DNA of 64,000 nt, taken from a virus. Below the pieces are notes generated by a model, which saw only the letters and a list, made by a program, of their open reading frames with translations, ran no database searches and was not told where the DNA came from. Of the stretch, positions 38,778-64,000 are shown one piece after another (position 1 is the stretch's first letter; the number at the start of each line of letters is the position of its first letter). The stretch covers positions 64,001 to 128,000 of the IMG/VR virus record IMGVR_UViG_3300030108_005940. One strand, 5' to 3'. The position numbers and the translations under genes are program-made.

Positions 38778-38816
38778 GTTTATATTATTCTCAGTATAAT
38801 ATTATATAATAAATTT

Positions 38817-44102: not shown

Positions 44103-45305
44103 ATGAAGAACCGAGCATTTCATTTTGAAATTAAAAATCTTTTAACGCAATTTATTGCAGCGTTTGATGATACGGTTATTAGTAGATATAATAAAAATAG
44201 AGAAAAAAAGAGTAACATTGAAGTTAGATATGTATTTGCACCCAAACAACGGGTCATGTATGATATTGTAAACAAGGCTCAAAACTTAACCCTACCGGTT
44301 GTAGCAATTAATTTAACGAGTATATCTCGAGATAACGACAGAGTATTTAATAAACTAGCTCCAACATATATACCTGCACAGAATCAAGATGACCCTAAAT
44401 CATCTGCAAATTTTTTAATGCCTGTACCTGTTAATTTAGAGATTAATATGTCAATACTTGGTAGGTATATGCAAGATGTAGATCAAATTATATCTAATTT
44501 TGTACCGTATAATAATCCCTATATTATTCTTTCATGGAAAGTACCAGAAGATTTTGGAGCAGGGTATGATCAAGAAATAAGAAGTGAAGTGTTGTGGGAT
44601 GGTAATTTATCTTACACAACACCGACAGATACTACATATAGTGATAAATTTAGAATTACCGTTGATACAACATTTACTATCAAAGGTTGGTTGTTTCCAG
44701 AGCAAAAAGATACATCGGGTAATATCTATAAAATAGATAATAACTTCTTAGCTGTAAATCTTGCAAACAGAATTTATTCACCCCTTGATAATAATGAAGT
44801 TGTAAGCAACACAACTTATACACAACAAGAATATGGAGCGCTATCAAGTTATGATACAGGTATACCAGATGCATATTCTGAAACTGTTACAATTTCAGCT
44901 ATACCCGAAATAACTAATTTATACTACACAACAACTGGTACATTTACACAGCTTTATCAAACAACAGTAGATCTTCTTTCTTCACATCCTAATAACTTCA
45001 TACTGTATGGTAAGAGATTTAATTATAATAATGAGTTCTTCTTAAGCGCTACTGATATGGGGGGCCCAATACCAAACAATCCTTTTTATTCAAATTATCA
45101 ACAAATTACTTCTGCAAAGTCAGCTACAATTAGCGGATATAAGCTTGGTGAATCGTTTTATGAGGTTGTTAACGATAACATATTAAATATTTTCTTACCT
45201 ACATCAACATTAAGCGCTGCCGGTAATTTTACTTTCGTAACAGCTAATGAAGCTGGATGGGGTTCTTCTTATCCAGCCACTAGCTCTATCCTTAACATAA
45301 CATAA
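44103..45305 (+). CDS. gp15: Tail terminator/sheath stabilizer (gp15-like) with Ser/Thr-rich C-terminal extension
   Basis: F...FDD..I.R, V..FAPKQR, LP, PVPVNL, DQI..F.P, FTIKGWLF; late promoter. Confidence 0.75.
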   Translation: MKNRAFHFEIKNLLTQFIAAFDDTVISRYNKNREKKSNIEVRYVFAPKQRVMYDIVNKAQNLTLPVVAINLTSISRDNDRVFNKLAPTYIPAQNQDDPKSSANFLMPVPVNLEINMSILGRYMQDVDQIISNFVPYNNPYIILSWKVPEDFGAGYDQEIRSEVLWDGNLSYTTPTDTTYSDKFRITVDTTFTIKGWLFPEQKDTSGNIYKIDNNFLAVNLANRIYSPLDNNEVVSNTTYTQQEYGALSSYDTGIPDAYSETVTISAIPEITNLYYTTTGTFTQLYQTTVDLLSSHPNNFILYGKRFNYNNEFFLSATDMGGPIPNNPFYSNYQQITSAKSATISGYKLGESFYEVVNDNILNIFLPTSTLSAAGNFTFVTANEAGWGSSYPATSSILNIT

Positions 45306-45316
45306 ATATATACAAG

Positions 45317-47131
45317 ATGCCAGGACAAGGACCATCAACTAGCCCAAATCAAAATCGTTCATATGTAACCAACGACGGTCGTGCTTCGACTTTCGGTAGA
45401 AACTTAGTTCAATACATACAAAACAGATTACCATACGCAACTGACGGGCGTGGAGAAAATGATGCATTAAATCCAAAGTATAAATTTTTTGCAAAAGCAG
45501 GTATGAGAAGAGCTGAAGCTCTTGCAAAATCTTCTGTATCTTCTTCTAACCCCTTTAACAATATACCTATTGGAGACTTTGCAAAAGATTCTTCTTTTGG
45601 TGATGTCATGTATGCAAACATACAAGACGATAAAGCAGGTAGATTGAGAGACTATAGAATAATGGCTGCTTACTCTGAAGTATCTGATGCTTTAGATGAA
45701 ATATGTGATGAGACAATTAACCCAGATGAATCTGGTTGGATTACAAAGTTACAGTTAAAAGATATAGATTTAACAATTGATGAAAAAGAAGAACTTGAAA
45801 AGCAATTTCATAGATATATAGAATACTACGATTTAAAGAATAGAGGGTGGCAATACTTTAGACAGTTAATGGTTGAAGGTGAAGTCTTTTTTGAGCAAAT
45901 TATTCATGAAGGGTATGTTAAGGATGGTGTACTCGGGGTGATAAATTTACCAGCAGAGATTATAGATCCTGTTTACAATAACATACAAAATATGCTTGTT
46001 AAAGGTTATATTTATAGAAAGCCTATTTTTAGTCCTGAGCACCCTGAGAAGGTTGAAAAGATTGAATTTATACCAATGGATCAAAACCAGATAATGTATG
46101 TAAACTCTGGTGTATATAACGAAACAAAAAACTTTGTAATTCCATTTTTAGAAAATGCTAGACGACCTTACAGACAATTATCTTTAATTGAAGATGCAAT
46201 TGTAATTTATCGTTTAGTTAGAGCTCCTGAAAGATTAGTTTTTAATGTTGATGTTGGTAACATGGCTCCGCCAAAAGCAGAAGCATATTTACGCAAGTTA
46301 ATTCAAAATTACTGGTCTAGAAAAACATTTGATATTGATCAAAATGATATTGTTAAAAAATTTAATCCACAATCAATGCTTGATGCATTTTGGTTCGCTA
46401 GACGTCAAGGATCTGAAGGAACTACTGTATCTCAGTTAGCCGGTGGTGCTAATTTGGGGGAGCTTTCAGACTTAATGTATTTCATTAAGAAACTTTATAG
46501 AGCTCTTAAAGTACCTTCAATGAGATTAGATCCAAACGATCAAGCTTCAGCTGATGGATCAACGATATTACGTGAAGAATTAAAGTTTGCTAGATTTATT
46601 ATGAGACAACAGCAAAGGTTTGCTGCTGGTCTCAAAAAAGGTTATATTACACACTTAACCCTAATGGGTATATTTGAAAAATTAGAACTTAATGAACAAA
46701 ATATTGAAATCGATTTTAATGTTCCGACTAATTTTTACGAATTAAGAGAAAATCAAAGACTAGAGTTAAAGTCTAATAATTATAATAATTTAGCTTCAAA
46801 CGAATTTGTATCTGCTACTTACGCGCAAAAGAAATATCTCGGTTGGCGTGATAAAGACATACTTGCTAATAGAGAGTTTTTAAGAAAAGATGCTGAGTTA
46901 CAATGGGAGATATCACAAATTACTGCAGCCGGGCCTGCTTGGAAAGAACAAGCATTGGCAGGCGAGCTAGCCGAGGGCGAAGCAGCTGTCGGAGGTGAAG
47001 GAGCTGGGGTAGGCGGAGGAGGCTCTGGTGGTATACCAGAATTTGGTGGAGGACCAGCTGATGTAGATGCACCAGAGGAGGTTGATGTAGAAGCTGAAGT
47101 TGATACAGTAGAAACAGAAGAACCTACCTAA
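45317..47131 (+). CDS. gp20: Portal protein (gp20)
   Basis: YR.MA...EV..A.DEI, EDAIVIYRLVRAPERLVFNVDVGNM, EELKFARF. Confidence 0.95.
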   Translation: MPGQGPSTSPNQNRSYVTNDGRASTFGRNLVQYIQNRLPYATDGRGENDALNPKYKFFAKAGMRRAEALAKSSVSSSNPFNNIPIGDFAKDSSFGDVMYANIQDDKAGRLRDYRIMAAYSEVSDALDEICDETINPDESGWITKLQLKDIDLTIDEKEELEKQFHRYIEYYDLKNRGWQYFRQLMVEGEVFFEQIIHEGYVKDGVLGVINLPAEIIDPVYNNIQNMLVKGYIYRKPIFSPEHPEKVEKIEFIPMDQNQIMYVNSGVYNETKNFVIPFLENARRPYRQLSLIEDAIVIYRLVRAPERLVFNVDVGNMAPPKAEAYLRKLIQNYWSRKTFDIDQNDIVKKFNPQSMLDAFWFARRQGSEGTTVSQLAGGANLGELSDLMYFIKKLYRALKVPSMRLDPNDQASADGSTILREELKFARFIMRQQQRFAAGLKKGYITHLTLMGIFEKLELNEQNIEIDFNVPTNFYELRENQRLELKSNNYNNLASNEFVSATYAQKKYLGWRDKDILANREFLRKDAELQWEISQITAAGPAWKEQALAGELAEGEAAVGGEGAGVGGGGSGGIPEFGGGPADVDAPEEVDVEAEVDTVETEEPT

Positions 47132-47543
47132 CAGGGTTACTGCTAAAGAATTGTGTTCTATAATGTACTATACCCGCGCTGCCTGCTTTTGCTGATACTT
47201 GATTAACATTTGTAAGACCTCTCACTACAGTCTCGTGGTTATTAGGTATTTGAATTACATGGTCTGCTCTTACCGTTCCGTAATTACCACTTGTATCTAC
47301 AAAAATTTCTAAAACTCCTCCAGTAGTATTATATATAACAACCTCTGAACACGGCTGACCTACTTTAACTGCAACTGCAGGTGCTGTATTTGTATTACTA
47401 CCAAAAGGAGCAGGTGCATTTGGATCTTGCCCAGATAGCTGTACTATCGATGTAGGAACATGTCTTGAAAAGGAAAAACACTGATTTTGGTTATAATACG
47501 TGCTTGTGTCTTGCTGATTACTTTTAGGTGGTGATGTCGCCAT
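47124..47543 (-). CDS. Hypothetical late (probably virion) protein
   Basis: TAAATA-N5-ATG on the minus strand, divergent from gp13. Confidence 0.6.
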   Translation of the reverse strand: MATSPPKSNQQDTSTYYNQNQCFSFSRHVPTSIVQLSGQDPNAPAPFGSNTNTAPAVAVKVGQPCSEVVIYNTTGGVLEIFVDTSGNYGTVRADHVIQIPNNHETVVRGLTNVNQVSAKAGSAGIVHYRTQFFSSNPVR

Positions 47544-47573
47544 ATATTTATTTATTCGCGAATAAATAATTTT

Positions 47574-48767
47574 ATGGCACTTGCATGTACAATTCAGCCC
47601 CTTTCGGCTTTTCTCTCAACAAACTTAAACTCTAAAATAGAAACATATGATAGATTAGGTGATAGGATTAAAAGATCTTTAGGATTCCCTTTAGTTTCAT
47701 TAGAAATTCATACCGATCAACTTAGAGAAAATATACAAATCGCAGTTGAATATTTTACAAAATATGCTGGTTATACGCAAGAGTTTTTAATATTTGATTC
47801 CAGAATGTATGAAGAGAATAAAGGAATACGTTTAGATTTACTTTATACATTAGCAAATACTGATTTAGATACAAATAGAAAATTAACAGCTGGTAATAAT
47901 CCAATAGGACCTGGCCCTGAATTTTATGGATCTAGATCTCCCTACACTAGTGCGTTTGGTGAAACGCTTTTTGTTGCAACTTCAACTTTAAGTGGTAGTG
48001 TGTTTTCTAGTTCAGTTGAACTATCTTCAACATTTTCGTATGAAATGAGTGGTACGAGCCCGGGTATTAAAGAGTTAGAATTATTTGACCATGCTTTATT
48101 TTCACAAATTTCTTCTTTCAATCAAAGCCTAACTGCACACTTTAAACAAACTCAGAAAAACACTCTTACTTTTCAAGGATCTGCATCCGATGCTATATTT
48201 TATCAAAATGTTTTTGATTATGATATTATGGACTACCGTAAGGTAATCGATGTATCTGATTTTGAGGAAGGTTCAAATACCGGTATTAACACGTTATTTA
48301 CTCTCGAACAGACCCTAGCGCAACAAACCTATTTTAGTTATGCATTAGGTAATTATGGATTTGATCTTGTATCATGGTATACCTTAAAGGAGTGGATGGA
48401 CACCCGAGAAAAAATGTTAGCAACAAGACGTGATGTAAAATTTGATTCACGTACTCAGTATATGCAAATGTACCCACAACCTGATGGTAATCGATTTTAC
48501 GGAGTAATATCTTGTTATTTAGAAAGAGCAATTAGAGATGTTATTATGGAGCAATGGATATATGAATATGCATTAGCTTTATCACAAATAACTATAGGAC
48601 GTGTCAGGGGTAAATTTGGCAATGTACAATTATTAGGTGGTGGGGCATTAAATTACGATATGCTCCAAGAAGGTTTACAACGAAAAACTGAACTTGAAGG
48701 AGAATTGCTCCAAGGCGCTTCACCTGGTCTAGGTGATAATGACCCTCCAATGTTCTTTGTTGGGTGA
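47574..48767 (+). CDS. gp13: Neck protein (gp13-like) with Ser-rich insertion
   Basis: R.LG.P..EI..DQ, WIYEYALAL...G..RGKF..V.L.GG..LN, PPMFFVG. Confidence 0.85.
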   Translation: MALACTIQPLSAFLSTNLNSKIETYDRLGDRIKRSLGFPLVSLEIHTDQLRENIQIAVEYFTKYAGYTQEFLIFDSRMYEENKGIRLDLLYTLANTDLDTNRKLTAGNNPIGPGPEFYGSRSPYTSAFGETLFVATSTLSGSVFSSSVELSSTFSYEMSGTSPGIKELELFDHALFSQISSFNQSLTAHFKQTQKNTLTFQGSASDAIFYQNVFDYDIMDYRKVIDVSDFEEGSNTGINTLFTLEQTLAQQTYFSYALGNYGFDLVSWYTLKEWMDTREKMLATRRDVKFDSRTQYMQMYPQPDGNRFYGVISCYLERAIRDVIMEQWIYEYALALSQITIGRVRGKFGNVQLLGGGALNYDMLQEGLQRKTELEGELLQGASPGLGDNDPPMFFVG

Positions 48768-49204
48768 TGAATAAATGGCGTCAAGGTACCTTTATACCTA
48801 AAAATATACATAAGTTTATTGGTAGCAAAGCAATATACCGCTCTGGTTTAGAGTTAAAATTTTTCCGTTTTTGTGATGATAACCCTAACGTAATTAAATG
48901 GGGTAGTGAAAATGTTGTTATACCTTATACAAGTCCTATAGATCATAGAGTACATAGATATTACGTTGATAATTATATTGAAATTAAAGAAGGTACTGTA
49001 ACAAAAAAATATCTCGTTGAAATTAAACCTTCAAAACAAACAAAACCACCTACAGTTAAATATAAAAAGAAAAAGCATTTAATTTATGAGCAACGAGCGT
49101 TTGTTATAAATCAAGCAAAATGGTCTGCAGCTAGAGAATATTGTAAAAAAATAGGAGGTTCTTTCATTATTTTAACAGAAAAAGAGCTTATTTCGAACAA
49201 ATGA
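48767..49204 (+). CDS. gp4: Head completion nuclease (gp4, TnsA-like)
   Basis: YRSGLE..F...CD.NP....WGSE...IPY..P.D...HRY.VD, EIKP..QT..P, NQAKW.AA. Confidence 0.9.
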   Translation: MNKWRQGTFIPKNIHKFIGSKAIYRSGLELKFFRFCDDNPNVIKWGSENVVIPYTSPIDHRVHRYYVDNYIEIKEGTVTKKYLVEIKPSKQTKPPTVKYKKKKHLIYEQRAFVINQAKWSAAREYCKKIGGSFIILTEKELISNK

Positions 49205-49216
49205 ATAAATAATTGT

Positions 49217-49882
49217 ATGTCATTAAAGCTTAACTTGGTTGTAGAAAAACCTGATGTGAACGATGAGTTCGAATACATTGAAGAAGAAGTAGATAGAAAC
49301 TCACCTTCGAATTTATATATAAAAGGTCCTTATATGATGGCTGAAGGGGTAAATAGAAATAATCGTTTATACCCTCTAGATGAATTACAAAGAGAAACAC
49401 AACGTTATATTGAGGAAATGGTTACACCAGGCCGTGCAATGGGAGAGCTAAATCACCCAACATCAGCAGATGTAGATCTAGAAAGAGCGTGTCATATGGT
49501 AACAGAGTTAACCCAAGATGGAAATGTATTTTATGGTAAGTCAAAAGTATTATCTACGCCGTGTGGTCAAATAGTTAGATCTTTAATAAATGACGGTGTA
49601 AAAGTAGGTATGTCTTCACGAGCTTTAGGCACACTTGAAGAGAGTAGTGAGCATAGTACCGTTAAAAATATGAAATTAGTTGCTATTGATTGTGTAGCAG
49701 ATCCATCATATCCAAAAGCTTTTGTTAATGGTATATTAGAATCTAAACAATGGGTATTGGTTGATGATAATAAATACGAAGAAGTTTATGAAAATTTTGA
49801 AAAATCACTACAAAAACTACCAAAAAAAGACATTGATTTGTTTTTACGTAACAGAATCCTTAGCTTTATTAAATCAATATAA
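49217..49882 (+). CDS. gp21: Prohead protease (gp21)
   Basis: NRNNRLY, GELNHP, TPCG, GMSSRALG, D.VADPS. Confidence 0.93.
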   Translation: MSLKLNLVVEKPDVNDEFEYIEEEVDRNSPSNLYIKGPYMMAEGVNRNNRLYPLDELQRETQRYIEEMVTPGRAMGELNHPTSADVDLERACHMVTELTQDGNVFYGKSKVLSTPCGQIVRSLINDGVKVGMSSRALGTLEESSEHSTVKNMKLVAIDCVADPSYPKAFVNGILESKQWVLVDDNKYEEVYENFEKSLQKLPKKDIDLFLRNRILSFIKSI

Positions 49883-49893
49883 TAAATAATAAT

Positions 49894-50040
49894 ATGGCTA
49901 AAGATAAATTAAAGATTAGTAAGTTTATCCACCACGTTTCTGATAAAAATTATGCTCAGGCACATAAATATTTAAAGAGCGTCATTGAGGATAAAATTGC
50001 AAAAAAAATTAATAACGCAACCGATAAACCACTCTTTTAA
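49894..50040 (+). CDS. Small prohead core protein (gp67-like; not in ORF track)
   Basis: 48-aa ORF MAKDKLKISKFIHHVSDKNYAQAHKYLKSVIEDKIAKKINNATDKPLF with its own TAAATA-N5-ATG, between gp21 and gp22. Confidence 0.65.
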   Translation: MAKDKLKISKFIHHVSDKNYAQAHKYLKSVIEDKIAKKINNATDKPLF

Positions 50041-50042
50041 TT

Positions 50043-50897
50043 ATGAATAAGAAAGCATTACCTGAACAAGCAGAAGAAGTACTTACTGAAGAGTCAGTAC
50101 AAGCTATAGAATCTGCCATTGGAGAAAAAATTCAGCTATCAGTAGAAGCTGCATTAACTAATCAAGATGAGCTTTATGCTGAAAAACTTGAAGAGTTAGT
50201 TAGCGCGATTGATAAAGATCATACTGATAAACTTAAAAGAGTTGTAGAAGCTGTAGATATTAATAATGCAAATAAGCTTATTACTGTAGTTAAGCGTTAT
50301 GAAAAAGAACTCAATGGAAGCGCTAGTAAGTTTAAAACAACATTAGTAGAGAGTATTTCAGACTATTTAGATGAATACATAGAAGAAGCTGTACCAACAC
50401 AAGCTATTGAAGAAGCAACTAAGAATAGAACTGCAAGAGAAGTTCTTTCTAACTTAAGAAAAGTGCTTGCTGTAGATTCATCCCTAATGAGTGAGTCTGT
50501 TAAAGAAGCTGTTGTTGATGGTAAGACACAAATTGATAAATTAACTGCTGATCTTAACATTCTTAAAAAAGAAAATAATCTTCTTAAAGAAGCGTATGGA
50601 AAACAAACTGCTAATTTATTATTAGAAACAAAAACAGCTGGTCTTCCACAAAGTAAAAAAGATTATCTTGTTAAAATTTTAGGTGATAAATCACCAAAGT
50701 TTATTGAAGAGAACTTTAACTACACAGTTACGTTATTTAATAAAAAAGAAAAAGAAAGACTTTCTGTACTTAAAGAAGAGGCATACAAAACACGTAAGGT
50801 CAAAACAGATGCCCCGGTACAAAAAACAATCACAGAGGAGAAAAAATCCAAACCTTCTAACCCTTATCTTGAGGAGTTAGAGAGGTCACACAAATAA
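50043..50897 (+). CDS. gp22: Prohead scaffold/core protein (gp22-like)
   Basis: Coiled-coil acidic protein between protease and capsid genes; LVESISDYLDEYIEE. Confidence 0.75.
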   Translation: MNKKALPEQAEEVLTEESVQAIESAIGEKIQLSVEAALTNQDELYAEKLEELVSAIDKDHTDKLKRVVEAVDINNANKLITVVKRYEKELNGSASKFKTTLVESISDYLDEYIEEAVPTQAIEEATKNRTAREVLSNLRKVLAVDSSLMSESVKEAVVDGKTQIDKLTADLNILKKENNLLKEAYGKQTANLLLETKTAGLPQSKKDYLVKILGDKSPKFIEENFNYTVTLFNKKEKERLSVLKEEAYKTRKVKTDAPVQKTITEEKKSKPSNPYLEELERSHK

Positions 50898-50979: not shown

Positions 50980-52512
50980 ATGAATAAACCACAATCATTT
51001 ATTGATAGAGATAGGGCAGATACACTTCTTGAGAAGTGGGCACCTGTTCTTGATTATTCATCCGATAGTGTTAAGGCTATTGATGACGACCACACTCGCT
51101 TGAATACTGCTATTCTTCTTGAGAACCAAGAGCAATGGTGTATTGAGGAGAGTTCTTCTGTTGGTGGAGGTTCTTTCGGAAAAGGTGCTACTATGTCGAG
51201 TTTATACAACCCGTCACAAGGTACCATCAATTCTGGAGATAACTACGCCGCAGGTGATGCTCGTCTTCCAAAAGTTCTTATTCCAATGATTCGTCGTACG
51301 TTCCCCGAGCTTATCACAAATGAGATTGTTGGCGTGCAGCCTATGTCTGGTCCTGTTGGACTTGCATTCGCACTTCGTTATGCTTATCAGAATGAATACC
51401 TTGGCTTTGGTGTCGATGGTACTGATAAGAACGGCGCCCTCACCGGTCCTGGTAACCCTCCTAACACCCCTGCAGGTGCAGCTTCTGGCGCACGTACTGG
51501 TGGTGCTGGAAATAACTACACTGGTGTAGACGGTCTTAATGCTGACGAGCTTGGATACCAACTTCTTGATACAAGATTTACCGGTGCTTCTTCTTACGGC
51601 TTGTCCGGAGATGATTCTAACTGGTCTTTCGCTGATCAAGATCGAGGTGTCGCTCAAATTCTTTCCGCATTTGAGATTACTGGTAACATTCCTCAGGTTG
51701 AGGTTAAGTTCGAGAAGACCGCTGTTGAGGCCGGCACACGCCGCCTTGGTGCACGTTGGTCCGTCGAGCTTGAGCAAGACCTTAAGAACATGAACGGTAT
51801 CGATATTGATGCTGAAATCACGAACGCTATGTCGTACGAGATTCAAGCTGAGATCGACCGTGAAATGCTCATGAGAATGATCCAGGCTTCTCTTAATGCT
51901 GGAGCTAACAGAGGATTCTCCTTCTGGTCACCTGCTTCTGCAGACGGCCGTTGGATGGTTGAGCGTAATAGGGACTTCTATCAGCGTATCATCATTGAAG
52001 CTAACCGCATTGCTGTGCGTAACAGGCGTGGGGCTGCAAACTTTATTGTTTGTACTCCTCGTGTTGCCGCCATTCTTGAAATGCTCCCTGAATTCCAGTG
52101 GGTACCCGTTCAAGGTGACGTAAATACACAACCTGTTGGTATTGCTAAGGTTGGTTCACTTGGTGGAAGATTCAACGTTTACCGTGATACTCGTACAGAG
52201 GTTCAGAACTCTAACATCTATGATGAGCAAACTTACACAACGAATGGTGCTACACGTACCGACGCTATTGAGTATGCTCTTCTCGGATACAAAGGTCCTG
52301 AATTCTACGATACTGGTATCATTTACTGTCCTTACATTCCTGTCATGGTTCAGAGAACTATTGGTCCTAACGACTTCGCACCACGTGTTGGCTTGCTTAC
52401 TCGTTATGGTGTTGTTGACAACATCTTCGGAGCAAATCTCTACTATCATGTCATTCTTGTTCAGGGACTCGGTACTGCGTTCACTCCAGCTTCTCAGTCG
52501 GTGTACTTCTAA
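50980..52512 (+). CDS. gp23: Major capsid protein (gp23)
   Basis: LLEKWAPVL, LLENQ, GVQPMSGP.GL.FALR, ELEQDL, EI.AEIDRE, YCPYIP, TRYG. Confidence 0.96.
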   Translation: MNKPQSFIDRDRADTLLEKWAPVLDYSSDSVKAIDDDHTRLNTAILLENQEQWCIEESSSVGGGSFGKGATMSSLYNPSQGTINSGDNYAAGDARLPKVLIPMIRRTFPELITNEIVGVQPMSGPVGLAFALRYAYQNEYLGFGVDGTDKNGALTGPGNPPNTPAGAASGARTGGAGNNYTGVDGLNADELGYQLLDTRFTGASSYGLSGDDSNWSFADQDRGVAQILSAFEITGNIPQVEVKFEKTAVEAGTRRLGARWSVELEQDLKNMNGIDIDAEITNAMSYEIQAEIDREMLMRMIQASLNAGANRGFSFWSPASADGRWMVERNRDFYQRIIIEANRIAVRNRRGAANFIVCTPRVAAILEMLPEFQWVPVQGDVNTQPVGIAKVGSLGGRFNVYRDTRTEVQNSNIYDEQTYTTNGATRTDAIEYALLGYKGPEFYDTGIIYCPYIPVMVQRTIGPNDFAPRVGLLTRYGVVDNIFGANLYYHVILVQGLGTAFTPASQSVYF

Positions 52513-52557
52513 TATTAGAACGTCGCTGATTAAGCAGCAGTCGAGAGACATAATCAC

Positions 52558-52591
52558 AAAACAGCAGAGCGAAAGCTCTGCTGTTTTTTTT
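52558..52591 (+). terminator. Strong intrinsic terminator after gp23
   Basis: aaaacagcagagc-GAAA-gctctgctgtttt followed by a T-tract. Confidence 0.92.
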
Positions 52592-52634
52592 GTTTATTCC
52601 TCTTAACTATTTTACAAGCAGACTAAATATTAAT

Positions 52635-53120
52635 ATGTCATCAATGAATTTTTTTAACCTTTCATCGTTTACACACGGTCTTTATAACTTAAGTGGGGGC
52701 GAATTTAGCAACACAGGAATACAACTTCCACACTATTTAAATAACTCGCCACTGGCAAATGGTCGAGGTGGAGACTTTGGATTAAGTGCGTTAGATAATT
52801 CAGTTCAATTATTAAATACAGGAAGAATTGGAGATTCACCAGTAATTGGACTTTTATTTAACTATAAAGGAGGCGATGGTAGTTCACCAAATAGCGCTCC
52901 TGTTACTGCTAGAACAATGAGATCACCAGATCATGCTACACATAATACACACATTAGAGTAGATTCAGATTACCATAATAATACCTTTGCATTAGTCGCT
53001 CTTAATGGAATGACCGTTACCTATACTGCTAAAGCCGGTACCATGCTACCAGTTGCTTCAGGTTTTAATCTAGTAGTTGGTCCAGATATGCGAAGAAAAG
53101 TACAAATGGGATACATTTAA
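52635..53120 (+). CDS. Putative capsid decoration protein, paralogue 1
   Basis: GACTAAATAT late promoter places the start at 52635; shares motifs with the 53135 ORF. Confidence 0.55.
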   Translation: MSSMNFFNLSSFTHGLYNLSGGEFSNTGIQLPHYLNNSPLANGRGGDFGLSALDNSVQLLNTGRIGDSPVIGLLFNYKGGDGSSPNSAPVTARTMRSPDHATHNTHIRVDSDYHNNTFALVALNGMTVTYTAKAGTMLPVASGFNLVVGPDMRRKVQMGYI

Positions 53121-53134
53121 GACTAAATATTTAT

Positions 53135-53684: not shown

Positions 53685-53927
53685 CTATATACCATCATCA
53701 ACTTCTTCTTCTTGTATCTCGTTATATAAGATATAATGATCTTGCTTATTACTATCCCAATATGCTGAAGCTGTAGCATAATCACTAAAATAATGCTCTT
53801 CTAAAAAGTTATCTGAGACTCTAAACCCGTTATTATCTATTGTATATTCTACAAGATCTACGTAGTAACCACTAAGAGGAGGTCTAAGAGGGTCACACCT
53901 TGTTATATTCCAATCGTATTCTTTCAT
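53685..53927 (-). CDS. Hypothetical protein
   Basis: Coupled to the upstream ORF by overlapping stop/start. Confidence 0.55.
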   Translation of the reverse strand: MKEYDWNITRCDPLRPPLSGYYVDLVEYTIDNNGFRVSDNFLEEHYFSDYATASAYWDSNKQDHYILYNEIQEEEVDDGI

Positions 53928-54796: not shown

Positions 54797-54799
54797 AAT

Positions 54800-57700
54800 T
54801 TATGCTGTTAAGTCACCAGCAACTAACCAAGTGTCTGTTGCAATTTTAGTTAATACAGCTGAACTGTATTGGACACGAGTTTTTAGTTCATTATCAGCTG
54901 CATACAACGTTACTCCTGAACCTGCAGCTATAGTAACTTGTCCTGCTCCTTTCTGTACAATTGTAACCTCAGCACCAATAGGAAAAGCTACTGAGCTGTT
55001 TGGCGGTACAGTTAAAGTAATAGCACTTCCATTATCAAGAGTAAGTAACCTACCATGGTCTCCTATTACTAAAGTTTTAGCTGTAGCTGTATTTATAGCT
55101 AATTGAGTATTTTGCCTCACCATTCCATTAATATCGAAAACTGAGTTTGTAAAATCCATTGTAGCGAAAGTTGCCTTACCTGACCCCCCATTACCGCAAA
55201 ATACAGTACAGCAATATGCGGCACCGCTTTCAATTTTTATATGACCATTTCCGGTTTGAACCATGTACAAGTCTCCGTATTGCACTAAACATGAACAATC
55301 ACCAAATTTTAAACCATAACCTGAACCTTGGTTTAATTGAATACTACCGCCACATATATGTAATTTATCATCTGCTGTAGAAGAACCAATTGCAACATTA
55401 CCCCCATCTTTAATAAAGATACCATTACTTGCATCATCAGTCACATAAAGACCACCGCTATCTATTGCTCTTATTTGATCTGTATATACAGACTTGCCTT
55501 GACCGAGATATACATTACCTAATGCGCTTATGTTTCCTGCAACAGTTAATTTTTCACCCGGGTCATCTTCACCAATACCAAGATTACAACAAATATAATT
55601 ATCACCATTAGCATGCAGCTGTACTTGGGCAGTCTGACCATCTTTGTACATAACCATAACACCAGAATCGTTACTATCAACGTATAAATTATGTGTTATT
55701 GAATCATCACTATCTTCTCTAATAAAAATACCATTAGTATTAGTACCGGTGTGTATATCTAATGTTGCACCAGGAGATGTTGTACCTATACCAATATTAC
55801 CTCCGGATGCAACATGCATTCTTGTTGCACCGCCTACACATAATTGTACATCACAGAAACCATTACCTACTGTCCCACCATCACTTGGACCTAAAACCAA
55901 ATCTTCATTATAAGCCATTACCACTCCAGTGTCGACTACTAGACATTTATTAAAATAAATTTTAGCTCTATCAGTTTGAATATGAGCATACGACCCATTT
56001 GCAGAACCAATTTCAAGATACCCGGTATCACTCTGTGAACGTAATAAGGTTTGATTAGTTATTGTAAGACAATTACCAGGATTAGGTCCTATCTTTAAGC
56101 AATTATTAGAGCTTATTTCACCAGAAACAGTAAGCTCTACCGGTGGTGGCGTCGAATTCATAGTCCCAATACCAACTTTACCTTTTAAGTAAGTACCGGC
56201 AACATCATCATTACCAAGCACAACACTATTATTACCACAACCACAAGCGCAGAAACCAATTACAGTTTCGTTTACTGGAGTACCAGCTAATGATCTTGTA
56301 CAAGCTCCTAAATATGTACTGTTATCAGGTGATGTTACTGCACTAGAACCGTTATTTTCAAATCTTCCAGCTGCATAACCTACAGCTGCGTTACAGTCTC
56401 CATCAGTATTATTACAGAGAGAATATAAACCAATAGATGTATTATAATGACCGGTTGTATTGGATCTTGAAGAATTAAAACCTACTGCAGTATTATTATT
56501 ACCGGTAGTATTCGAATACAGCGCATGAGTTCCTATTCCAACATTTTGATAACCGCATGTATTTGTTCTAAGCGCTTGGTAACCTAAAGCTTCATTATAT
56601 ACACCAGCTGTTGTACAGCGTAAAGCATCAAGACCAACAGCTGTATTAGCATTCGAATTAGCTGCTAACAACGCTCTAAAACCTACAGCTGTATTACTTG
56701 CTGCAGATATTGCACCCTTTAATGTTTCATATCCAACAGCTGTGTTATAACCCCGGCAAAGAACGTTTGTAAGCGCGCAGGTTCCAATAGCAACATTACA
56801 TCCACCGGTAATAACACTCTTAAGGGATGAGGGTCCAATAGCTATATTATGTGTTCCTATCGTATTAGAATGTAGAGTATTAGATCCAATGGCTATATTA
56901 CAACATCCTGTTGTATTGTTTGTTAGTCCAAGATAACCTAAACTAACATTATCCCTTCCAATTGTATTATCCATTAGATTTCTATAACCAGCACTAAAGT
57001 TATAGTCACCTGATGTACTATAGTACATACTTTGCCAACCTATACTAGTATTATGTGAACCACATATGTTTGTATACAATGCGTTGTAACCTAGAGCAAC
57101 GTTACAATTTCCATTTCGATTATAAAACATTGCCTGATATCCAATAGCAACATTACTGCTCCCGCTGTTGCTATAAGGATGACCGCCGGAGTGAGCCATG
57201 GCTCCTATAGCAACATTATTTAACCCGGTTGCATTATAAAGTAGGGCACTGGGACCTATACCAACATTATAATTTCCGGTTGTATTATTTTCGAGAGATT
57301 TAAATGCTATCGCGACGTTACAACAACCAGTTGTATTATCATGTAGTGCACACCCACCAATACCGATATTATTACTAGCAGTAGTATTTTTGCATAAAGG
57401 TCTATATCCTATAGCTATATTATTTGTACCGTGGGTATTTGCTTTAAGAGGTTCACGTCCTATCCCAATATTATAAAATCCTCCAGTATTATTGTAGAGA
57501 GCATGATAGCCGATAGCTTCATTATGATAACCGGTTGAATTATAATACAAAGTGCATGCTCCAATCGCATTATTAAATACACCGGTAGTATTAGTATATA
57601 GAGCATTTGTACCAACACCTACGTTCTGACAAGCAGTACCGGTGTTGTTGTTTAATACAAAGTGACCTATACCAACATTACACCCGGCTTCTGTATTTTT

Positions 57701-59446
57701 CCATAAAGTTTGACGCCCTAATGCTATATTACCCCCACCGGTAGTATTATCATCTAAAGCTTGTCGACCTATAGCTATATTATAATCACCCGAAGTATTA
57801 CCAAATAAAGTTCTATAACCTATAGCGGTATTATAAGTACCCGCTATATTACTACATAAAGCCTCAGTACCAAAAGCATTATTTTTATCTCCTGTTGTAT
57901 TGCTACATAAAGCATACTGTCCAACAGCGGTGTTATTAACAGCGCATGTATTACTTACTAAGGCACAAGATCCTACAGCTACGTTACACGCTCCTCCCAA
58001 ATTTGCATACAAGGCTTTAGATCCTACAGCTACATTATAGTTACTAGTTTCATTAGATTTTAAAGCTTCACAACCAATAGCAACGTTGCAATCACCTGTT
58101 GTATTATAATATGCAGCTCCGCAACCAACTGCAACATTACGTAATCCTGATGTGTTGCTAAATAATGCGCCTTCTCCAACAGCGGTGTTTTGATAACCTT
58201 CAGCGTTTGAAAACATAGACTGTAATCCAATTGCTGTGTTTTGAGTACCAGCTCCTGTATTAGTATGTAAAGCTTGCAACCCAACAGCTGTGTTTGAACC
58301 TGTTGTATTATTTTGAAGTGCACCAGCTCCAACAGCAACGTTATAATCTCCTGTAGAGTTTGTTAACAACGCCCTATAACCTATAGCTGTATTTAAATTA
58401 GCCCCGCTACCCATAAGTAACATAGCCTTGGTACCCATGACTGTATTACCGGTAACAGTACTACAATAACCACTTAAAGCACTAACACTACCTGCTATTG
58501 TAAGTTCAGCAGATAGCGGATTAGTTGTCATTATACCAACTTTACCATGATTTGTAGCTGTTATTCTTGTAGCAGCTCCAGCACCTAAAAGTAATTTGTT
58601 TGAATCGTGGTTATATATAACATACCCTCTATATACTTCATCTCCTGATGTACCATCAGCAAAATATAAATTACCAGTATCAGCATTATCAGAATATATA
58701 GTAATGCCATGACATCCGGTTCCACTACCAACTACTAATGTATTAGCTGAATCACTCAAGCTACTCTGATCCTGAGTACGAATACCAACTTTATCGCTAG
58801 TATCTATAAACAACGATGTAGTAGTACCATTATCAGTACTAAACTCCATGTCAACACCATTAGCATAAAAATTTAAATCACCCCCTGTTCGACTAATAGA
58901 AGAATTTTCACCGCCTATACAAATTGCTGCTTCACCTGAACCCCTTGATTCTAAACATATATGAGCACCAGAAGCACCATCATCTACAACTAAGCTAGTT
59001 GTAGCATCAGTACCTTTAATACAGACAATATCAGAGCAAAATTTTGCATCTCCTATTACCTCTAGTTTAGAGGTAGGTGTACCAGTACCAATGCCGACGT
59101 TACCTGCGGAAGTAACCAGGGTATTTGTACCGTATGTACCTATAGTAACTACGTCTGTTACACAAGAATTTACATTTATTATCGGAAGTCCAGATGCATC
59201 ATTAACAGAAAAAATATCTCCTGTAAGACTATCTGTTACACCTAATAATTGGCCACCGTCACCTACAACAGAAAAACGAGAAGCACCAGTTAAACCACCA
59301 TAATGACTTTCAATTTCTAACCCGGATTTATCTATTTGGGAAAACTGTATACCGCCACTTGAAATTTTAGGCACAGTTGACCCACCAGCTGTCTCTTCAT
59401 TGAAGTAGATTGCCCCTGATGCTGGAGTTATAAGTACGTTTGCCAT
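54800..59446 (-). CDS. Long tail fibre/adhesin with 14-aa beta-roll repeats, Cys-rich
   Basis: VGIGT fibre motifs, tandem N-x-A-[IV]-G-x-x-A-L repeats, C-terminal TLTVP...FPIG...W...GDL domain; TATAAATA promoter. Confidence 0.8.
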   Translation of the reverse strand: MANVLITPASGAIYFNEETAGGSTVPKISSGGIQFSQIDKSGLEIESHYGGLTGASRFSVVGDGGQLLGVTDSLTGDIFSVNDASGLPIINVNSCVTDVVTIGTYGTNTLVTSAGNVGIGTGTPTSKLEVIGDAKFCSDIVCIKGTDATTSLVVDDGASGAHICLESRGSGEAAICIGGENSSISRTGGDLNFYANGVDMEFSTDNGTTTSLFIDTSDKVGIRTQDQSSLSDSANTLVVGSGTGCHGITIYSDNADTGNLYFADGTSGDEVYRGYVIYNHDSNKLLLGAGAATRITATNHGKVGIMTTNPLSAELTIAGSVSALSGYCSTVTGNTVMGTKAMLLMGSGANLNTAIGYRALLTNSTGDYNVAVGAGALQNNTTGSNTAVGLQALHTNTGAGTQNTAIGLQSMFSNAEGYQNTAVGEGALFSNTSGLRNVAVGCGAAYYNTTGDCNVAIGCEALKSNETSNYNVAVGSKALYANLGGACNVAVGSCALVSNTCAVNNTAVGQYALCSNTTGDKNNAFGTEALCSNIAGTYNTAIGYRTLFGNTSGDYNIAIGRQALDDNTTGGGNIALGRQTLWKNTEAGCNVGIGHFVLNNNTGTACQNVGVGTNALYTNTTGVFNNAIGACTLYYNSTGYHNEAIGYHALYNNTGGFYNIGIGREPLKANTHGTNNIAIGYRPLCKNTTASNNIGIGGCALHDNTTGCCNVAIAFKSLENNTTGNYNVGIGPSALLYNATGLNNVAIGAMAHSGGHPYSNSGSSNVAIGYQAMFYNRNGNCNVALGYNALYTNICGSHNTSIGWQSMYYSTSGDYNFSAGYRNLMDNTIGRDNVSLGYLGLTNNTTGCCNIAIGSNTLHSNTIGTHNIAIGPSSLKSVITGGCNVAIGTCALTNVLCRGYNTAVGYETLKGAISAASNTAVGFRALLAANSNANTAVGLDALRCTTAGVYNEALGYQALRTNTCGYQNVGIGTHALYSNTTGNNNTAVGFNSSRSNTTGHYNTSIGLYSLCNNTDGDCNAAVGYAAGRFENNGSSAVTSPDNSTYLGACTRSLAGTPVNETVIGFCACGCGNNSVVLGNDDVAGTYLKGKVGIGTMNSTPPPVELTVSGEISSNNCLKIGPNPGNCLTITNQTLLRSQSDTGYLEIGSANGSYAHIQTDRAKIYFNKCLVVDTGVVMAYNEDLVLGPSDGGTVGNGFCDVQLCVGGATRMHVASGGNIGIGTTSPGATLDIHTGTNTNGIFIREDSDDSITHNLYVDSNDSGVMVMYKDGQTAQVQLHANGDNYICCNLGIGEDDPGEKLTVAGNISALGNVYLGQGKSVYTDQIRAIDSGGLYVTDDASNGIFIKDGGNVAIGSSTADDKLHICGGSIQLNQGSGYGLKFGDCSCLVQYGDLYMVQTGNGHIKIESGAAYCCTVFCGNGGSGKATFATMDFTNSVFDINGMVRQNTQLAINTATAKTLVIGDHGRLLTLDNGSAITLTVPPNSSVAFPIGAEVTIVQKGAGQVTIAAGSGVTLYAADNELKTRVQYSSAVLTKIATDTWLVAGDLTA
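56215..58450 (-). repeat. About 50 tandem 14-aa (42-bp) degenerate coding repeats (YadA-head-like beta-roll)
   Basis: e.g. NTAIGYRALLTNST / NVAVGAGALQNNTT / NTAVGLQALHTNTG; boundaries approximate. Confidence 0.8.
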
Positions 59447-59471
59447 CTATATATATTTATACGTTAAATTT

Positions 59472-60278: not shown

Positions 60279-61006
60279 CCTGTTGTAAAACTAGCCCCTC
60301 TAGAGGTTCGTCCTTTGTATATGTTATATGTATATCTAACTTCATCGTCTGTCAACTTTCTATCATAAACTGCTATAGCTTCGTTATAAGCATGTCTATA
60401 ATCTGAACCACCAGGGGGAATAAAAGTAGTCATATGACTTAAAGAAGAACCAGAACTTGTTTGACCTAAATTACCTGTTAAATTAACAGCACTTCCTGCC
60501 TTAGTATCGTTTACCCATAGTTGTGAAGCTCCTGGAGCTGCACATTGTAAAGTTAATAAATATGTCCCTCCAGGGCTTAATATTGCGGTATTTGTAATAT
60601 TAGTCCACCCGCTTGCATCTCCTGCAGTTTGATTACCATACCATCTAAATTTTAACTGAGAACCGTTTCCAAGATAGTTTCCAAAATGGTATAATATAAA
60701 ACTAGCATTATTAGCATATGAACTATTCCATTTACTTACAGGATGTTCAGCATAACCGGTATGTGAGCGTAATACATGTATCAATGTAAAGAAAGTAATT
60801 TCAGATATATCATTAGCCCATGAAGATATATTAGCGTTAGACCATGTATCTTCAGCATTTAAGCTAGATTGCTGTGATATGGTACCGGTTACAGAGGGAT
60901 CTGCTAAATTTATACTAGTAGATCCTTGATAGCATCTTGGATTTTTAAAATCCTCAACAAATACTAAACCGTCACGTATTAAATGACCTTTTATTTCAGA
61001 CGCCAT
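60275..61006 (-). CDS. LamG/ConA-like virion protein, paralogue 2
   Basis: LIRDGLVFVEDFKNPRCY ... YDRKLTDDEV..TYN..KGR. Confidence 0.65.
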   Translation of the reverse strand: MASEIKGHLIRDGLVFVEDFKNPRCYQGSTSINLADPSVTGTISQQSSLNAEDTWSNANISSWANDISEITFFTLIHVLRSHTGYAEHPVSKWNSSYANNASFILYHFGNYLGNGSQLKFRWYGNQTAGDASGWTNITNTAILSPGGTYLLTLQCAAPGASQLWVNDTKAGSAVNLTGNLGQTSSGSSLSHMTTFIPPGGSDYRHAYNEAIAVYDRKLTDDEVRYTYNIYKGRTSRGASFTTG

Positions 61007-64000
61007 CTACTTCTACCTCCATTCTATCGATATCTTTACGTTCACCATATACTACGTAGTTATAGCAATCAGAAACTCCACCTATACAAATATGTTCATT
61101 GCTCTGACACTTAACATATAAACACTGATAACTACCCACTGGTGTTAATATTACTGAAACAGAGTCATCTCTAACTAATCCTTTCCAATATTCAGGTAAA
61201 GTAATACAACTTTTATCAGTTTTACCTCTAAATTGTACACCCCATTCTGGAGCCTCTACAGCGCCGTGTTTTAGTTTATAACCAGGCTTTGTTGGGTGAT
61301 CAATTAAGAATGCTTTTGTACAAGCACTAAAGTGATTAACACCGGTTAGATCACCATCTATAATAACAGCTCCTGTAGATCCAGCAATACACCCGGTAAC
61401 ACATACTCCAGTATTTGTTGTCTCAAACTTCTTTGAGTTGTCGAAAAATAATTCAACATTACCACCATTATTTGCATTCACAGTCTGACCAGAGCCATCA
61501 GCATTCTGCAATCTAAGGTTGTTTGCTCTAATATATAAATCACCAATCCCAACATCGTCTATAAAGCTATTACTTCCATTGTGATAGATTTGTAAATATT
61601 TTTGATCCCCTACTGATATCTTACCGTCATCCGGAACAGCGACTTCAGATGTTGCACTAAGACCTGCAACACAAACACCAGTAGATGTTGTCTCAAACTT
61701 CTTTGAGTTATCGTGATATAATTCAACTGCTCCGTCATCAATAAACTTAGCTTGCGTTTCACCTCCATCTCCAGACCTTATACATGTATTATTACCATCT
61801 AGATATAAAATCCCATTAGTAGCAGCTACTCTTGTATATCCAGTCGTACCTTCAATTTTATTGTTTCCGTCGTGATATAATTGTAAATCAGCACTACAGC
61901 CTAACCCTATCTTGTAGCCATCCGGTAAGTTTAACGCCTCATTTAAAATATCAGTACCAATACCAACTCTCGGAGCAGAAGCATTAGCAGATAACGTCAT
62001 GGCAAATCCCTGTGATGTACCTATTTTTACACAACCTGACTTACCACTAGTAAGACATAATTCTGCTGCGTTGCTAACATATTGTGCATCAAGTTTTGTT
62101 CCAGCAAAACAACTATTTGCGTTAATTACTTTACCTAGTATGGTACCACAAGTAGTTTTAATATCACATCTACCACTTATAGTACCAAATACGGTAAGTT
62201 TTTCATTAGGTGTAGTAGTACCTATACCCACGTTACCAGCAGAAACAGGTAAACCAGTACCTATTAATATTTGTTCTTCACCACCATCTAACCGCAAGTA
62301 ATCAACTTCATTACCATAGCCGTCGTCAGCTTTAAATAAAATATCAGCATCAGATGCTTGATTGCAAAAAGTTATATTTCCTTTGGTACCAATTAATAAC
62401 GCGTTAGTATCATTATGACTTATTGTAAAATCTTCATGAGTTCCAAATCCAGCTGTTACATTATCAGCAAATCGGAAGTTTTGCTTAACACAAGTATTAT
62501 TTGCACTACTATCAATCCTTATATACTCAGCAGCAGTACCACTGGAGTTTTCAGCGCAAAATACGATATCATTACCATGATCATAGTTATAGAAAATTAT
62601 ATCACCACTATGACTTTCAACAAAATTTGTTGAACCATCGTGATAAAATCTAAAGTTACCACCTGTACCAAATCGAAGGCTGCAATTATTTACTAAGTTG
62701 AGAGAACCAGAAGGTGAGTTTGTACCTATACCAATATTACCAGCAAAATAGTTAGGACTAGGACCAGCAGCACTCAGACTTCCACTAGCGCTTATGTTAC
62801 CATGTACAGTTAATTTTTCAGATGTTTTTTCTGTACCTATACCTACATTATCTCCATTAGAAGCATTAAGAAGTGTATCACCATCAGGCTTTAAAGTAAT
62901 TTCAGCACCCCCAGTACCTTGGTATGTAATAAAAAAATCAGAATCATTACCATTATCAGCGTGATAAAAATTAACATTATCACTACCACCGCTTCCATTA
63001 TCAATACGCAACCCCCCTGTACTTCCATGACCTTGTATGTGAAATTTTGCGCCCGGGGTACATGTACCTATACCAACATCACCCCCGCTAAGCCAGCTAT
63101 CACCATTAGAGTTTAATCTAATATTTTCAAAAGCATTATTATAAATTTGTAATTTACCTGCAGTACTTTGTCCATTAGCTATAGCAACACAACCCATATT
63201 TGGTTTAATATGAAAGTGACCTCCACCTTGTTGCAAACATGTACATCTGCCATTAGTACTTGAAAGCATAGCAACAGCTTCAGAACCACCTATAGTAAGC
63301 AATTGATCTGGAGCTGGTGTTCCGATACCAACATTGCCACTATTTAGGATAGTCATTCTGTTATGCAGAGTGCCACCGGTACAAGTTTCAAAGAAAATAT
63401 CACTGGTGTTGTTATTAGCTCCATATATATGGGTATCAGTAGTGGAATCCATTCCTATGATATCAAAAGGAAGTGAATTGCCATAATAGCCCCTCAATGC
63501 TTTGCCTTGAGTAATTAAAATATCTCCATCAACATGAAGTTCTGCTTGAGGACCAGTTCTACCTATACCAACTTTACCTTCAAAGTAATTATTATCTGGA
63601 CCAGCGGCGCTAAGACTTCCACTAGCACTTATGTTACCAAGTACAGTTAATTTTTCAGCTGGTGCTACTGTACCTATACCTACGTTACCACCTTCCTCAA
63701 GACGCATTAATTCATCAGAACCATTGACATCAAATATGATATCACTGTTTGCACTTACTTTTGTATCATCGTTAAACTTTATGTAAGAGCTTGCATAAGT
63801 TGTTCCTTTAAATTTTTTATCATCACCTAATGCTACATTACCAGAAGAATCAATGGTCATCATTGTCGAAGTGCCAGTTACATCAATCTTTAGATTACCA
63901 TCACCGATTAAGAGGTTGTCTGAACCATCCATCTTAGCAACACCTATCACCCCACCCCCAGCAGTCTCTGCCAAATACTGTTGATTGTTATCTATCCTTA
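60996..64000 (-). CDS. Long tail fibre protein with C-terminal chaperone-like domain (5' end beyond window)
   Basis: Repeated GNVGIGT..P..KL.V.GNISA modules; C-terminal K.FLIDHP...L.H...E.PE.GV..RG; frame stays open to 64000. Confidence 0.78.
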   Translation of the reverse strand, partial: RIDNNQQYLAETAGGGVIGVAKMDGSDNLLIGDGNLKIDVTGTSTMMTIDSSGNVALGDDKKFKGTTYASSYIKFNDDTKVSANSDIIFDVNGSDELMRLEEGGNVGIGTVAPAEKLTVLGNISASGSLSAAGPDNNYFEGKVGIGRTGPQAELHVDGDILITQGKALRGYYGNSLPFDIIGMDSTTDTHIYGANNNTSDIFFETCTGGTLHNRMTILNSGNVGIGTPAPDQLLTIGGSEAVAMLSSTNGRCTCLQQGGGHFHIKPNMGCVAIANGQSTAGKLQIYNNAFENIRLNSNGDSWLSGGDVGIGTCTPGAKFHIQGHGSTGGLRIDNGSGGSDNVNFYHADNGNDSDFFITYQGTGGAEITLKPDGDTLLNASNGDNVGIGTEKTSEKLTVHGNISASGSLSAAGPSPNYFAGNIGIGTNSPSGSLNLVNNCSLRFGTGGNFRFYHDGSTNFVESHSGDIIFYNYDHGNDIVFCAENSSGTAAEYIRIDSSANNTCVKQNFRFADNVTAGFGTHEDFTISHNDTNALLIGTKGNITFCNQASDADILFKADDGYGNEVDYLRLDGGEEQILIGTGLPVSAGNVGIGTTTPNEKLTVFGTISGRCDIKTTCGTILGKVINANSCFAGTKLDAQYVSNAAELCLTSGKSGCVKIGTSQGFAMTLSANASAPRVGIGTDILNEALNLPDGYKIGLGCSADLQLYHDGNNKIEGTTGYTRVAATNGILYLDGNNTCIRSGDGGETQAKFIDDGAVELYHDNSKKFETTSTGVCVAGLSATSEVAVPDDGKISVGDQKYLQIYHNGSNSFIDDVGIGDLYIRANNLRLQNADGSGQTVNANNGGNVELFFDNSKKFETTNTGVCVTGCIAGSTGAVIIDGDLTGVNHFSACTKAFLIDHPTKPGYKLKHGAVEAPEWGVQFRGKTDKSCITLPEYWKGLVRDDSVSVILTPVGSYQCLYVKCQSNEHICIGGVSDCYNYVVYGERKDIDRMEVEVDGV

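Follow-up and report, generated by a model that had tools for sequence, protein, structure and literature searches.

General O-glycosylation in the Bacteroidota is an extracytoplasmic process that uses a lipid-linked glycan and the sequon D-[S/T]-[A/I/L/V/M/T]. Serine or cysteine residues are also glycosylated in the cytoplasm, by glycosyltransferases (GTs) of several kinds: (i) the GT2 enzymes of glycocins (SunS type), (ii) the GT4 proteins GtfA/GtfB of serine-rich adhesins and (iii) autotransporter heptosyltransferases. To our knowledge, proteome-wide, sequon-based protein glycosylation has so far been described only in cells. Among phages, the virions of mycobacteriophages are glycosylated by phage-encoded GTs (Freeman et al. 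2023, as cited in PMC12619734), and the GT-rich hypervariable islands of pelagimyophages and cyanomyophages have been read as modifying the host O-chain (PMC7029224). Here we describe a short tripeptide, L-S-[A/G/S], which marks outer virion proteins of an uncultured marine T4-like myophage of low GC content (~33%), together with the sugar genes of this phage. The stretch analysed (the window; 64,000 nucleotides) comprises bases 64001-128000 of the 154,604-bp IMG/VR record IMGVR_UViG_3300030108_005940. The tag is real and specific, it is restricted to the clade of this phage, and its serine is under selection. Our leading hypothesis is that this serine is O-glycosylated by a phage transferase.

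The distal part of the window (44103-64000) contains the genes for gp15, the portal gp20, a gp13-like neck protein, gp14, the gp21 protease, a probable scaffold, gp23, two small paralogues and tail fibres or spikes; the sheath, tubes, tape measure, baseplate and more fibres are encoded in the remainder of the genome, outside the window. The sequence-only reading of this region had proposed that a [LIV]-S-[AG] motif recurs in exterior virion proteins, and all the examples that it quoted were found at the genes it named. Expected counts were derived from composition-preserving shuffles (2000 for the [LIV]S[AG] test of the window). This analysis revealed that the 16 structural open reading frames (ORFs) of 44103-64000 contain 33 matches versus 17.1 +/- 4.0 expected (z 3.9), a count reached by 0 of the 2000 shuffles. 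The density of the motif in these ORFs is 5.1 per 1000 amino acids (aa), compared with 1.4 per 1000 aa in the 58 other ORFs of the window. It is thus indeed sparser outside virion proteins, but the other ORFs stand at expectation (20 vs 19.6), with no sign of avoidance.

The form of the motif had to be corrected. When all structural proteins of the genome were counted, with the giant fibre excluded, only the leucine form was in excess (LS[AG], 48 vs 15.5, z 8.3), and it was joined by LSS (25 vs 8.8), whereas IS[AG] (11 vs 12.8) and VS[AG] (10 vs 12.3) showed no overall excess, although a few conserved sites do use Ile or Val. The motif was therefore refined to L-S-[A/G/S]. Within the window, LS[AGS] occurs 24 times in structural ORFs (9.2 expected, z 5.0) and 12 times in the others (11.6 expected). 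The excess is directional, since the reversed motif is at expectation (35 vs 40), and it needs both flanks: motifs with one correct flank only, and those with Thr, Ala, Gly, Asn or Asp in place of the central Ser, all occur at their expected numbers. Leu-Ser is followed by A, S or G in 48% of cases, and positions -4 to +5 are otherwise without signal. The serine of the motif is encoded by both TCN and AGY, and the leucine by several codons.

The excess might be an artefact of composition, repeats, paralogy or of a motif chosen after looking, and there is some ground for suspicion. The motif was picked after the data had been viewed, the matches of the giant fibre are repeat copies, and in the window [LIV]S[AG] ranks only 10th of 1243 comparable class-residue-class motifs, being outscored by fibre-repeat motifs such as [AG]-I-[AG]. 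However, we consider this explanation extremely improbable. Composition is rejected by global and local shuffles, as the excess persists under shuffling inside 10- and 20-aa blocks. Post-hoc choice is rejected by three observations: (i) the tail and baseplate genes outside the window, which were not seen by the sequence-only reading, contain 46 [LIV]S[AG] matches versus 26.4 expected (z 4.0), and the unseen part of the giant fibre 54 versus 15.2 (unseen non-structural genes, 29 vs 23.1), (ii) the excess recurs in other genomes and is absent from four control phages (see below), and (iii) in an unbiased ranking of 3525 testable tripeptides LSA is 2nd, LSS 7th and LSG 8th. Repeats and paralogy are rejected by BLAST masking of paralogous and repeated segments, after which the 43 structural proteins of the 154.6-kb genome still contain 76 LS[AGS] versus 24.8 expected (z 10.5); the count of the giant fibre is nonetheless inflated by its ~25 repeat copies.

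Three further candidates were considered and set aside. A word acting at the DNA level is rejected by the use of both serine codon families and of several leucine codons. A hidden shared domain carrying the motif is unlikely, given the absence of further signal at positions -4 to +5. A lipobox-like element (L-S-[AG]-C) is rejected, as there is no preference for Cys after the motif.

The virion proteins concerned are encoded by the following genes, of which those in the window are given first:

44103..45305, + strand: gp15 tail-sheath stabiliser with a C-terminal extension of ~180 aa (PHROG 227; Pfam T4-gp15_tss, aa 4-222 only)
45317..47131, + strand: portal gp20 (PHROG 213), a buried protein serving as internal contrast
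47124..47543, - strand: small late protein, function not assigned (LSG at aa 36, VSA at aa 116)
47574..48767, + strand: gp13-like neck protein (PHROG 211; LSA at aa 10, LSG at aa 139, LSS at aa 150)
48764..50897, + strand: gp14 head closure protein, gp21 prohead protease and probable scaffold (PHROGs 218 and 207)
50980..52512, + strand: major capsid protein gp23 (PHROG 138; LSG at aa 208, LSA at aa 228)
52590..53629, + strand: two small proteins after gp23, paralogous by BLAST ("decoration-like" in the sequence-only reading)
53685..53927, - strand: 80-aa protein (LSG at aa 18)
54800..59446, - strand: 1548-aa tail spike/fibre protein (PHROGs 4636, 23837, 6002)
60996..64000, - strand: C-terminal 1000 aa of the giant fibre (whole ORF 4204 aa, genome 124996-137610, L007:96-12710)
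Outside the window: 721-aa PKD-containing protein after baseplate gp6 (LS[AGS] 15 vs 1.5)
Genome 42433-43956: fibre-like protein (LS[AGS] 9 vs 1.4)
Genome 43973-45646: fibre-like protein (LS[AGS] 6 vs 1.2)
Genome 3132-5591: 819-aa protein (LS[AGS] 7 vs 1.4)

Among the proteins of the window, LS[AGS] is in excess in gp15 (4 vs 0.42), the gp13-like protein (3 vs 0.79), gp23 (2 vs 0.52) and the two paralogues that follow it (3 vs 0.45 and 2 vs 0.24), for which no PHROG or Pfam family match was found. The sites of gp15 are LSS at aa 247 and 292, LSA at aa 314 and 370, ISA at aa 264 and ISG at aa 343. The T4-gp15 domain ends near residue 222, and all of these sites come after it, in agreement with the earlier remark that the motif is often found in extensions. 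Both sites of gp23 align to approximately residues 209-240 of T4 gp23, a region that we take to be the outward insertion domain. The portal contains one VSA and no LS[AGS] (0.47 expected), and LS[AGS] is absent from 80 of 80 portal orthologues. It is likewise absent here from gp14, the gp21 protease and the scaffold, and nearly so from the 43-52 orthologues of each.

The fibres gave a mixed picture. The giant fibre is rich in the motif, as had been claimed ([LIV]S[AG], 64 vs 18.5 for the whole protein and 42 vs 11.0 after repeat masking), but the "fibre" seen at 60996-64000 is only the C-terminus of this 4204-aa protein, and its matches are borne by repeats. The protein is composed of ~25 copies of a module of ~100-160 aa with the block ...P.EKLTV.GNISA.G.LSA.G...NYF.G.VGIGT, which contributes two motif matches per copy. 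The ORF contains a few N bases in the record, read as X in the protein. The 1548-aa fibre shows no excess ([LIV]S[AG], 6 vs 5.8; LS[AGS], 2 vs 2.8), and three further tail genes contain no motif match.

In order to place these counts in context, relatives and control phages were compared. The present genome is referred to as G000, and its relatives as G001, G002, G003 and G004-G007. A megablast search of the structural block against cultured phages gave no match; the nearest capsid proteins, from cyanomyophages, share at most 34% identity, the portal identity is ~30%, and the phage has no close cultured relative. A portal search of IMG/VR yielded 217 related stretches, of which the best 80 were used; in these 80 loci the gene order around the structural genes is strictly syntenic. 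The control phages were T4 (structural proteins) and HTVC008M, P-RSM1 and P-SSM2 (genome-wide).

The excess of LS[AGS] is shared by the structural homologues of G001 (84 vs 30.7) and G002 (74 vs 22.1), with the other genes of these genomes at 28 versus 21.9 and 31 versus 22.4, respectively. It is weaker in deeper branches (G003, 24 vs 15.1), in which the gp15 sites are retained. The structural proteins of T4 show no excess (15 vs 15.8). Genome-wide, the ratio of observed to expected counts is 2.41 in G000 and 1.94 and 1.93 in two relatives, compared with 1.17 in HTVC008M, 1.10 in P-RSM1 and 1.12 in P-SSM2, and, relative to these three controls, proteins with an outlier motif load occur in clade members only. 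Given the four controls, the tag is a general trait neither of structural proteins of the T4 type nor of phages that carry sugar clusters.

The mean number of LS[AGS] per orthologue is 3.2 versus 0.53 expected for gp15, 2.0 versus 0.56 for the capsid protein, 4.3 versus 0.73 for gp13 (n=52) and 1.03 versus 0.20 for the small late protein 47124..47543, and zero for the portal, gp14 and the protease. In gp15 orthologues (n=64) the L and S are nearly invariant and are followed interchangeably by G, S or A, a pattern seen at conserved sites in general; both gp23 sites are retained in 28 of 32 orthologues. The serine itself is under selection: motif serines are conserved more often than other serines, both between G000 and G001 (82% vs 55%, p 6e-6) and between G000 and G002 (73% vs 49%, p 0.001). 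At the same time, sites turn over. Motifs of G000 were kept in 51 of 68 cases in G001 (63% overall identity) and in 24 of 52 in G002 (59%), motifs occur at non-homologous positions in both relatives (21 in G001, 24 in G002), and the presence of 13 distinct motif columns among gp13 orthologues also implies turnover. Conservation and turnover are both directly visible in the alignment of the 721-aa protein.

Inspection of the remaining genome revealed two proteins that deserve mention. An acidic 276-aa protein encoded beside the terminase (genome 6513-7343, L003:5613-6443, - strand) contains three L-S-small motifs versus 0.39 expected. As this excess is also present in G001 (3 motifs) and G002 (4), the protein may belong to the virion without having been recognised as such. 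A 1490-aa right-handed beta-helix protein encoded outside the window (genome 46949-51421, L005:8101-12573, + strand) has almost no L-S-small motif. It contains ten linkers, poly-Thr or Thr/Pro in composition and at most 20 residues long, of a type that is classically O-glycosylated elsewhere; in the structural set, no tripeptide is more over-represented than TTT (93 vs 17).

The sugar genes of the phage lie mainly in the region annotated at 26296-40944 of the window, with one further enzyme in the replication block:

26296..27078, + strand: GT2 glycosyltransferase at the conserved left border of the island (Pfam Glycos_transf_2), a candidate initiating enzyme
27068..39937, + strand: hypervariable sugar island (Pfam matches: RmlC-like, SDR epimerase/dehydratase, B12 radical SAM, split TPP E1 pair, DegT aminotransferase, GT2, PfkB-like kinase, GT47/RXYLT1-like, SPASM radical SAM, flavodoxin, cupin)
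39962..40543, + strand: DUF366 protein at the conserved right border of the island (Pfam DUF366; 59-94% identity in 33 related loci)
7888..9114, - strand: predicted 408-aa GT-B (GT4-like) glycosyltransferase of the replication block, a candidate second writer (Foldseek E ~1e-7 to PimB', BshA, WaaG and TarM)

The phage thus encodes GTs (two of GT2 type, one GT47/RXYLT1-like and one GT-B enzyme) and a nucleotide-sugar pathway, as had been recognised from the sequence. The further claim, that the cluster at 26-41 kb is the partner of the motif, does not hold: relatives in which the motif is retained have unrelated sugar genes in place of the content of 27-40 kb. Most island genes have no homologue in G001 or G002, where other sugar genes occupy the same place. 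The island of G001 encodes GT10-like, GDP-mannose dehydratase, sugar C-methyltransferase, FkbM and WavE proteins, and that of G002 GT15-like, GT47-like, aminotransferase and methyltransferase proteins. The product of one gene of G002 (L107:6782-7552) matches Pfam Glyco_transf_15 (E 1e-30), an unusual finding for a phage, since the fungal members of this family elongate mannose chains attached to proteins. Extra genes occupy the island position in all related loci whose upstream DNA is long enough, and no clade member without an island was seen among them; both annotated islands (G001, G002) consist of sugar genes.

Only two sugar enzymes are clade-wide, the bordering GT2 and the GT-B enzyme. 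Homologues of the GT2 (36-72% identity) are present in G001, G002 and G004-G007; no BLASTP match was obtained in HTVC008M, P-RSM1 or P-SSM2, and a sequence search found no relative with a solved structure. The GT-B enzyme has no Pfam match, and its AlphaFold model has a predicted local distance difference test score (pLDDT) of 64. Its Atlas clusters are named "Glycosyl transferases group 1" and comprise viruses only. It has 1485 unnamed homologues in marine data, and it shares 65-78% identity with its counterparts in G001, G002, G004, G005 and G007. Its N-terminus (~78 aa) is conserved, Pro/Phe-rich and disordered (pLDDT 30-44), and could be a docking arm. Both enzymes are present wherever the contig of a relative covers the locus, and both are absent from the control phages.

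That the serine of the tag carries a modification, that this would be a sugar, and the choice of the enzyme attaching it are our inferences. In the reading that we favour, outward-facing proteins (the capsid protein, gp13, the gp15 extension, the giant fibre, the small head proteins and outer baseplate proteins) would bear L-S-[A/G/S] as a short acceptor tag that works without further sequence context. A clade-specific soluble GT, either the GT2 (26296-27078) or the GT-B enzyme (7888-9114), would act in the cytoplasm, recognising the tripeptide where it lies at a strand end or in a loop, and put a first sugar onto the serine hydroxyl. The strain-variable island beside the GT2 would then supply and add further unusual sugars, and related phages would bear different glycans on the same conserved sites. 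Of the single explanations considered, such O-glycosylation, carried out by a clade-wide transferase of the phage and diversified through the island, accounts best for the data, with a probability of roughly 0.4. It agrees with the finding that a short sequon is both enriched and conserved on many unrelated proteins, as in sequon-directed O-glycosylation. More tentative is the wider proposal that an uncultured clade of T4-like phages abundant in the ocean possesses its own general O-glycosylation, directed by this sequon to at least a dozen outer proteins, and that the strain-specific glycans made by the island form a variable, serotype-like coat.

Several observations weigh against O-glycosylation of the tag. 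(i) The distribution on the particle is uneven. The sequence-only reading had pictured a glycan coat on capsid, neck and fibres; the motif is indeed non-random and selected on virion proteins, with none in the buried portal, gp14, protease and scaffold, but no enrichment is seen in several exposed components, namely the sheath, the tubes (zero sites in the tail tube proteins), gp6, the 1490-aa beta-helix protein and the 1548-aa fibre. (ii) The other, non-structural proteins of the genome contain 37 LS[AGS] versus ~26 expected and do not avoid the motif, although avoidance in other phage proteins would be expected if a cytoplasmic enzyme read it as a bare tripeptide. (iii) Thr seldom replaces the motif Ser, and the motif Leu is conserved like any core residue, which would also fit a role in folding. 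(iv) The late-promoter motif ATAAATA lies 12-18 nucleotides upstream of the genes for gp15, the portal, gp13, the protease and a fibre, and 8-12 nucleotides upstream of 47124..47543, but it is missing in front of the GT2, the GT-B gene and every gene of the island; late co-expression is therefore not indicated. (v) Approximately 45 other genes are as clade-specific as the two GTs, so that the co-occurrence of GTs and motif is inseparable from shared ancestry. (vi) The published reading of marine myophage islands concerns the host O-chain (PMC7029224).

ATAAATA was also found 12-16 nucleotides before several small genes of the + strand at 14256-20946 of the window (14272, 15125, 16435, 20047 and 20506). 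These late genes lie apart from the structural block, and none of them is enriched in the motif, which fits internal rather than surface proteins.

The third of these points leads to the possibility that the tripeptide is an element of folding or assembly without any covalent modification, either as a preferred cap for strands in the beta-rich outer proteins of this clade or as a point of contact with a chaperone or assembly factor specific to it, and that the island serves something else. This is consistent with the AlphaFold model of gp15, in which aa 270-400 form an all-beta domain (pLDDT ~75-86) and four of the six sites are at strand ends or loops of this domain, the other two (aa 247 and 264) being in a low-confidence linker before it. 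The missing late promoters of the sugar genes, the lack of avoidance in phage enzymes and the unenriched exposed proteins would be accounted for as well. However, unrelated folds share the motif (neck, capsid, PKD-containing baseplate protein, fibres) without any extended context around it, G, A and S interchange freely at position +1, the number of sites is maintained despite gains and losses, and proteins of like architecture in T4, cyanophages and pelagiphages have no excess. We regard a structural role as somewhat unlikely.

The alternative that the island and the GTs are unrelated to the motif, and act on the host envelope (on its O-chain, or in the exclusion of other phages) or on phage DNA, has to be taken seriously, although we lean against it. 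It concerns the island only and thus overlaps with the structural role and with the non-sugar modification treated below. In addition to the published interpretation of pelagimyophage and cyanomyophage islands, it is supported by the description of sets of viral GTs through which DNA is hypermodified with diverse glycans (bioRxiv 10.1101/2023.12.21.572611), by the absence of late promoters from the island and by the location of the GT-B gene in the replication block. On the other hand, P-SSM2 and HTVC008M have such sugar genes and no motif excess, and islands alone therefore explain nothing about the motif. As regards DNA, neither a thymidylate-synthase-type hydroxymethylase (PF00303) nor a Tet/JBP domain (PF12851) was found in G000-G002, G000 being an estimated 72% complete and the control for the PF12851 search being itself silent.

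A QueE-like 4Fe-4S protein, an AAA_28 P-loop protein (25577-26299) and a GTP cyclohydrolase are clade-conserved (window 24803-26299; genome 137654-138589), and they point to a 7-deazaguanine pathway abutting the left border of the island.

The serine could, finally, carry something other than a sugar, attached by another clade-specific enzyme (phosphorylation or a phospho-form, acylation or ADP-ribosylation). Selection does act on the serine itself, and the ~45 clade-specific conserved genes are uncharacterised, several of them lying beside the island (e.g. that of the AAA_28 protein). No candidate protein kinase or transferase was identified, however, and the only recognised clade-wide transferases are glycosyltransferases; we therefore judge this alternative improbable.

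If the tag is a glycosylation site, phages would own a proteome-wide, sequon-based system of protein glycosylation. The sugar islands of marine myophages, now read as modifiers of the host surface, would be recast as makers of a variable virion coat, with a bearing on phage survival, grazing, adsorption and host range in the ocean, and the pair of enzyme and sequon would constitute a compact cytoplasmic glycosylation tool. Even without a sugar, it has to be explained why selection in this clade acts on the same three-residue element in virion proteins that are unrelated to one another.

Compared with the mycobacteriophages, the present phage likewise encodes its own GTs, and its structural proteins are the proposed acceptors of a glycan coat on the particle. 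In the mycobacteriophage systems, as outlined in PMC12619734, glycans are placed at the C-termini of capsid and tail-tube subunits; the candidate sites described here, which were recognised from sequence alone, are internal and spread over at least a dozen proteins (aa 208 and 228 of the 510 aa of the capsid protein, and none in the tube). With the pelagimyophages and cyanomyophages this phage shares a variable block of sugar and GT genes near the structural genes of a marine T4-like genome, but HTVC008M, P-RSM1 and P-SSM2 are without an excess of L-S-small, and the clade is distant from them, as judged from its capsid protein. The system also differs from DNA glycosylation of the T4 type in that no enzyme forming hydroxymethyl-pyrimidines was found in G000-G002, within the limits of the searches given above.

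As in the Bacteroidota, a three-residue sequon marks many unrelated proteins; the sequon is a different one, phage particles assemble in the cytoplasm, and no oligosaccharyltransferase was seen here. The cytoplasmic Ser/Cys GTs offer a parallel in that they are soluble, have a GT-A or GT-B fold, take their sugars from nucleotide sugars and modify Ser among small residues, and the clade-wide enzymes of this phage have GT2 and, by prediction, GT4-like folds. No sequence relationship to those enzymes was found, however, and their acceptors are loops, repeats or structural motifs rather than L-S-small.

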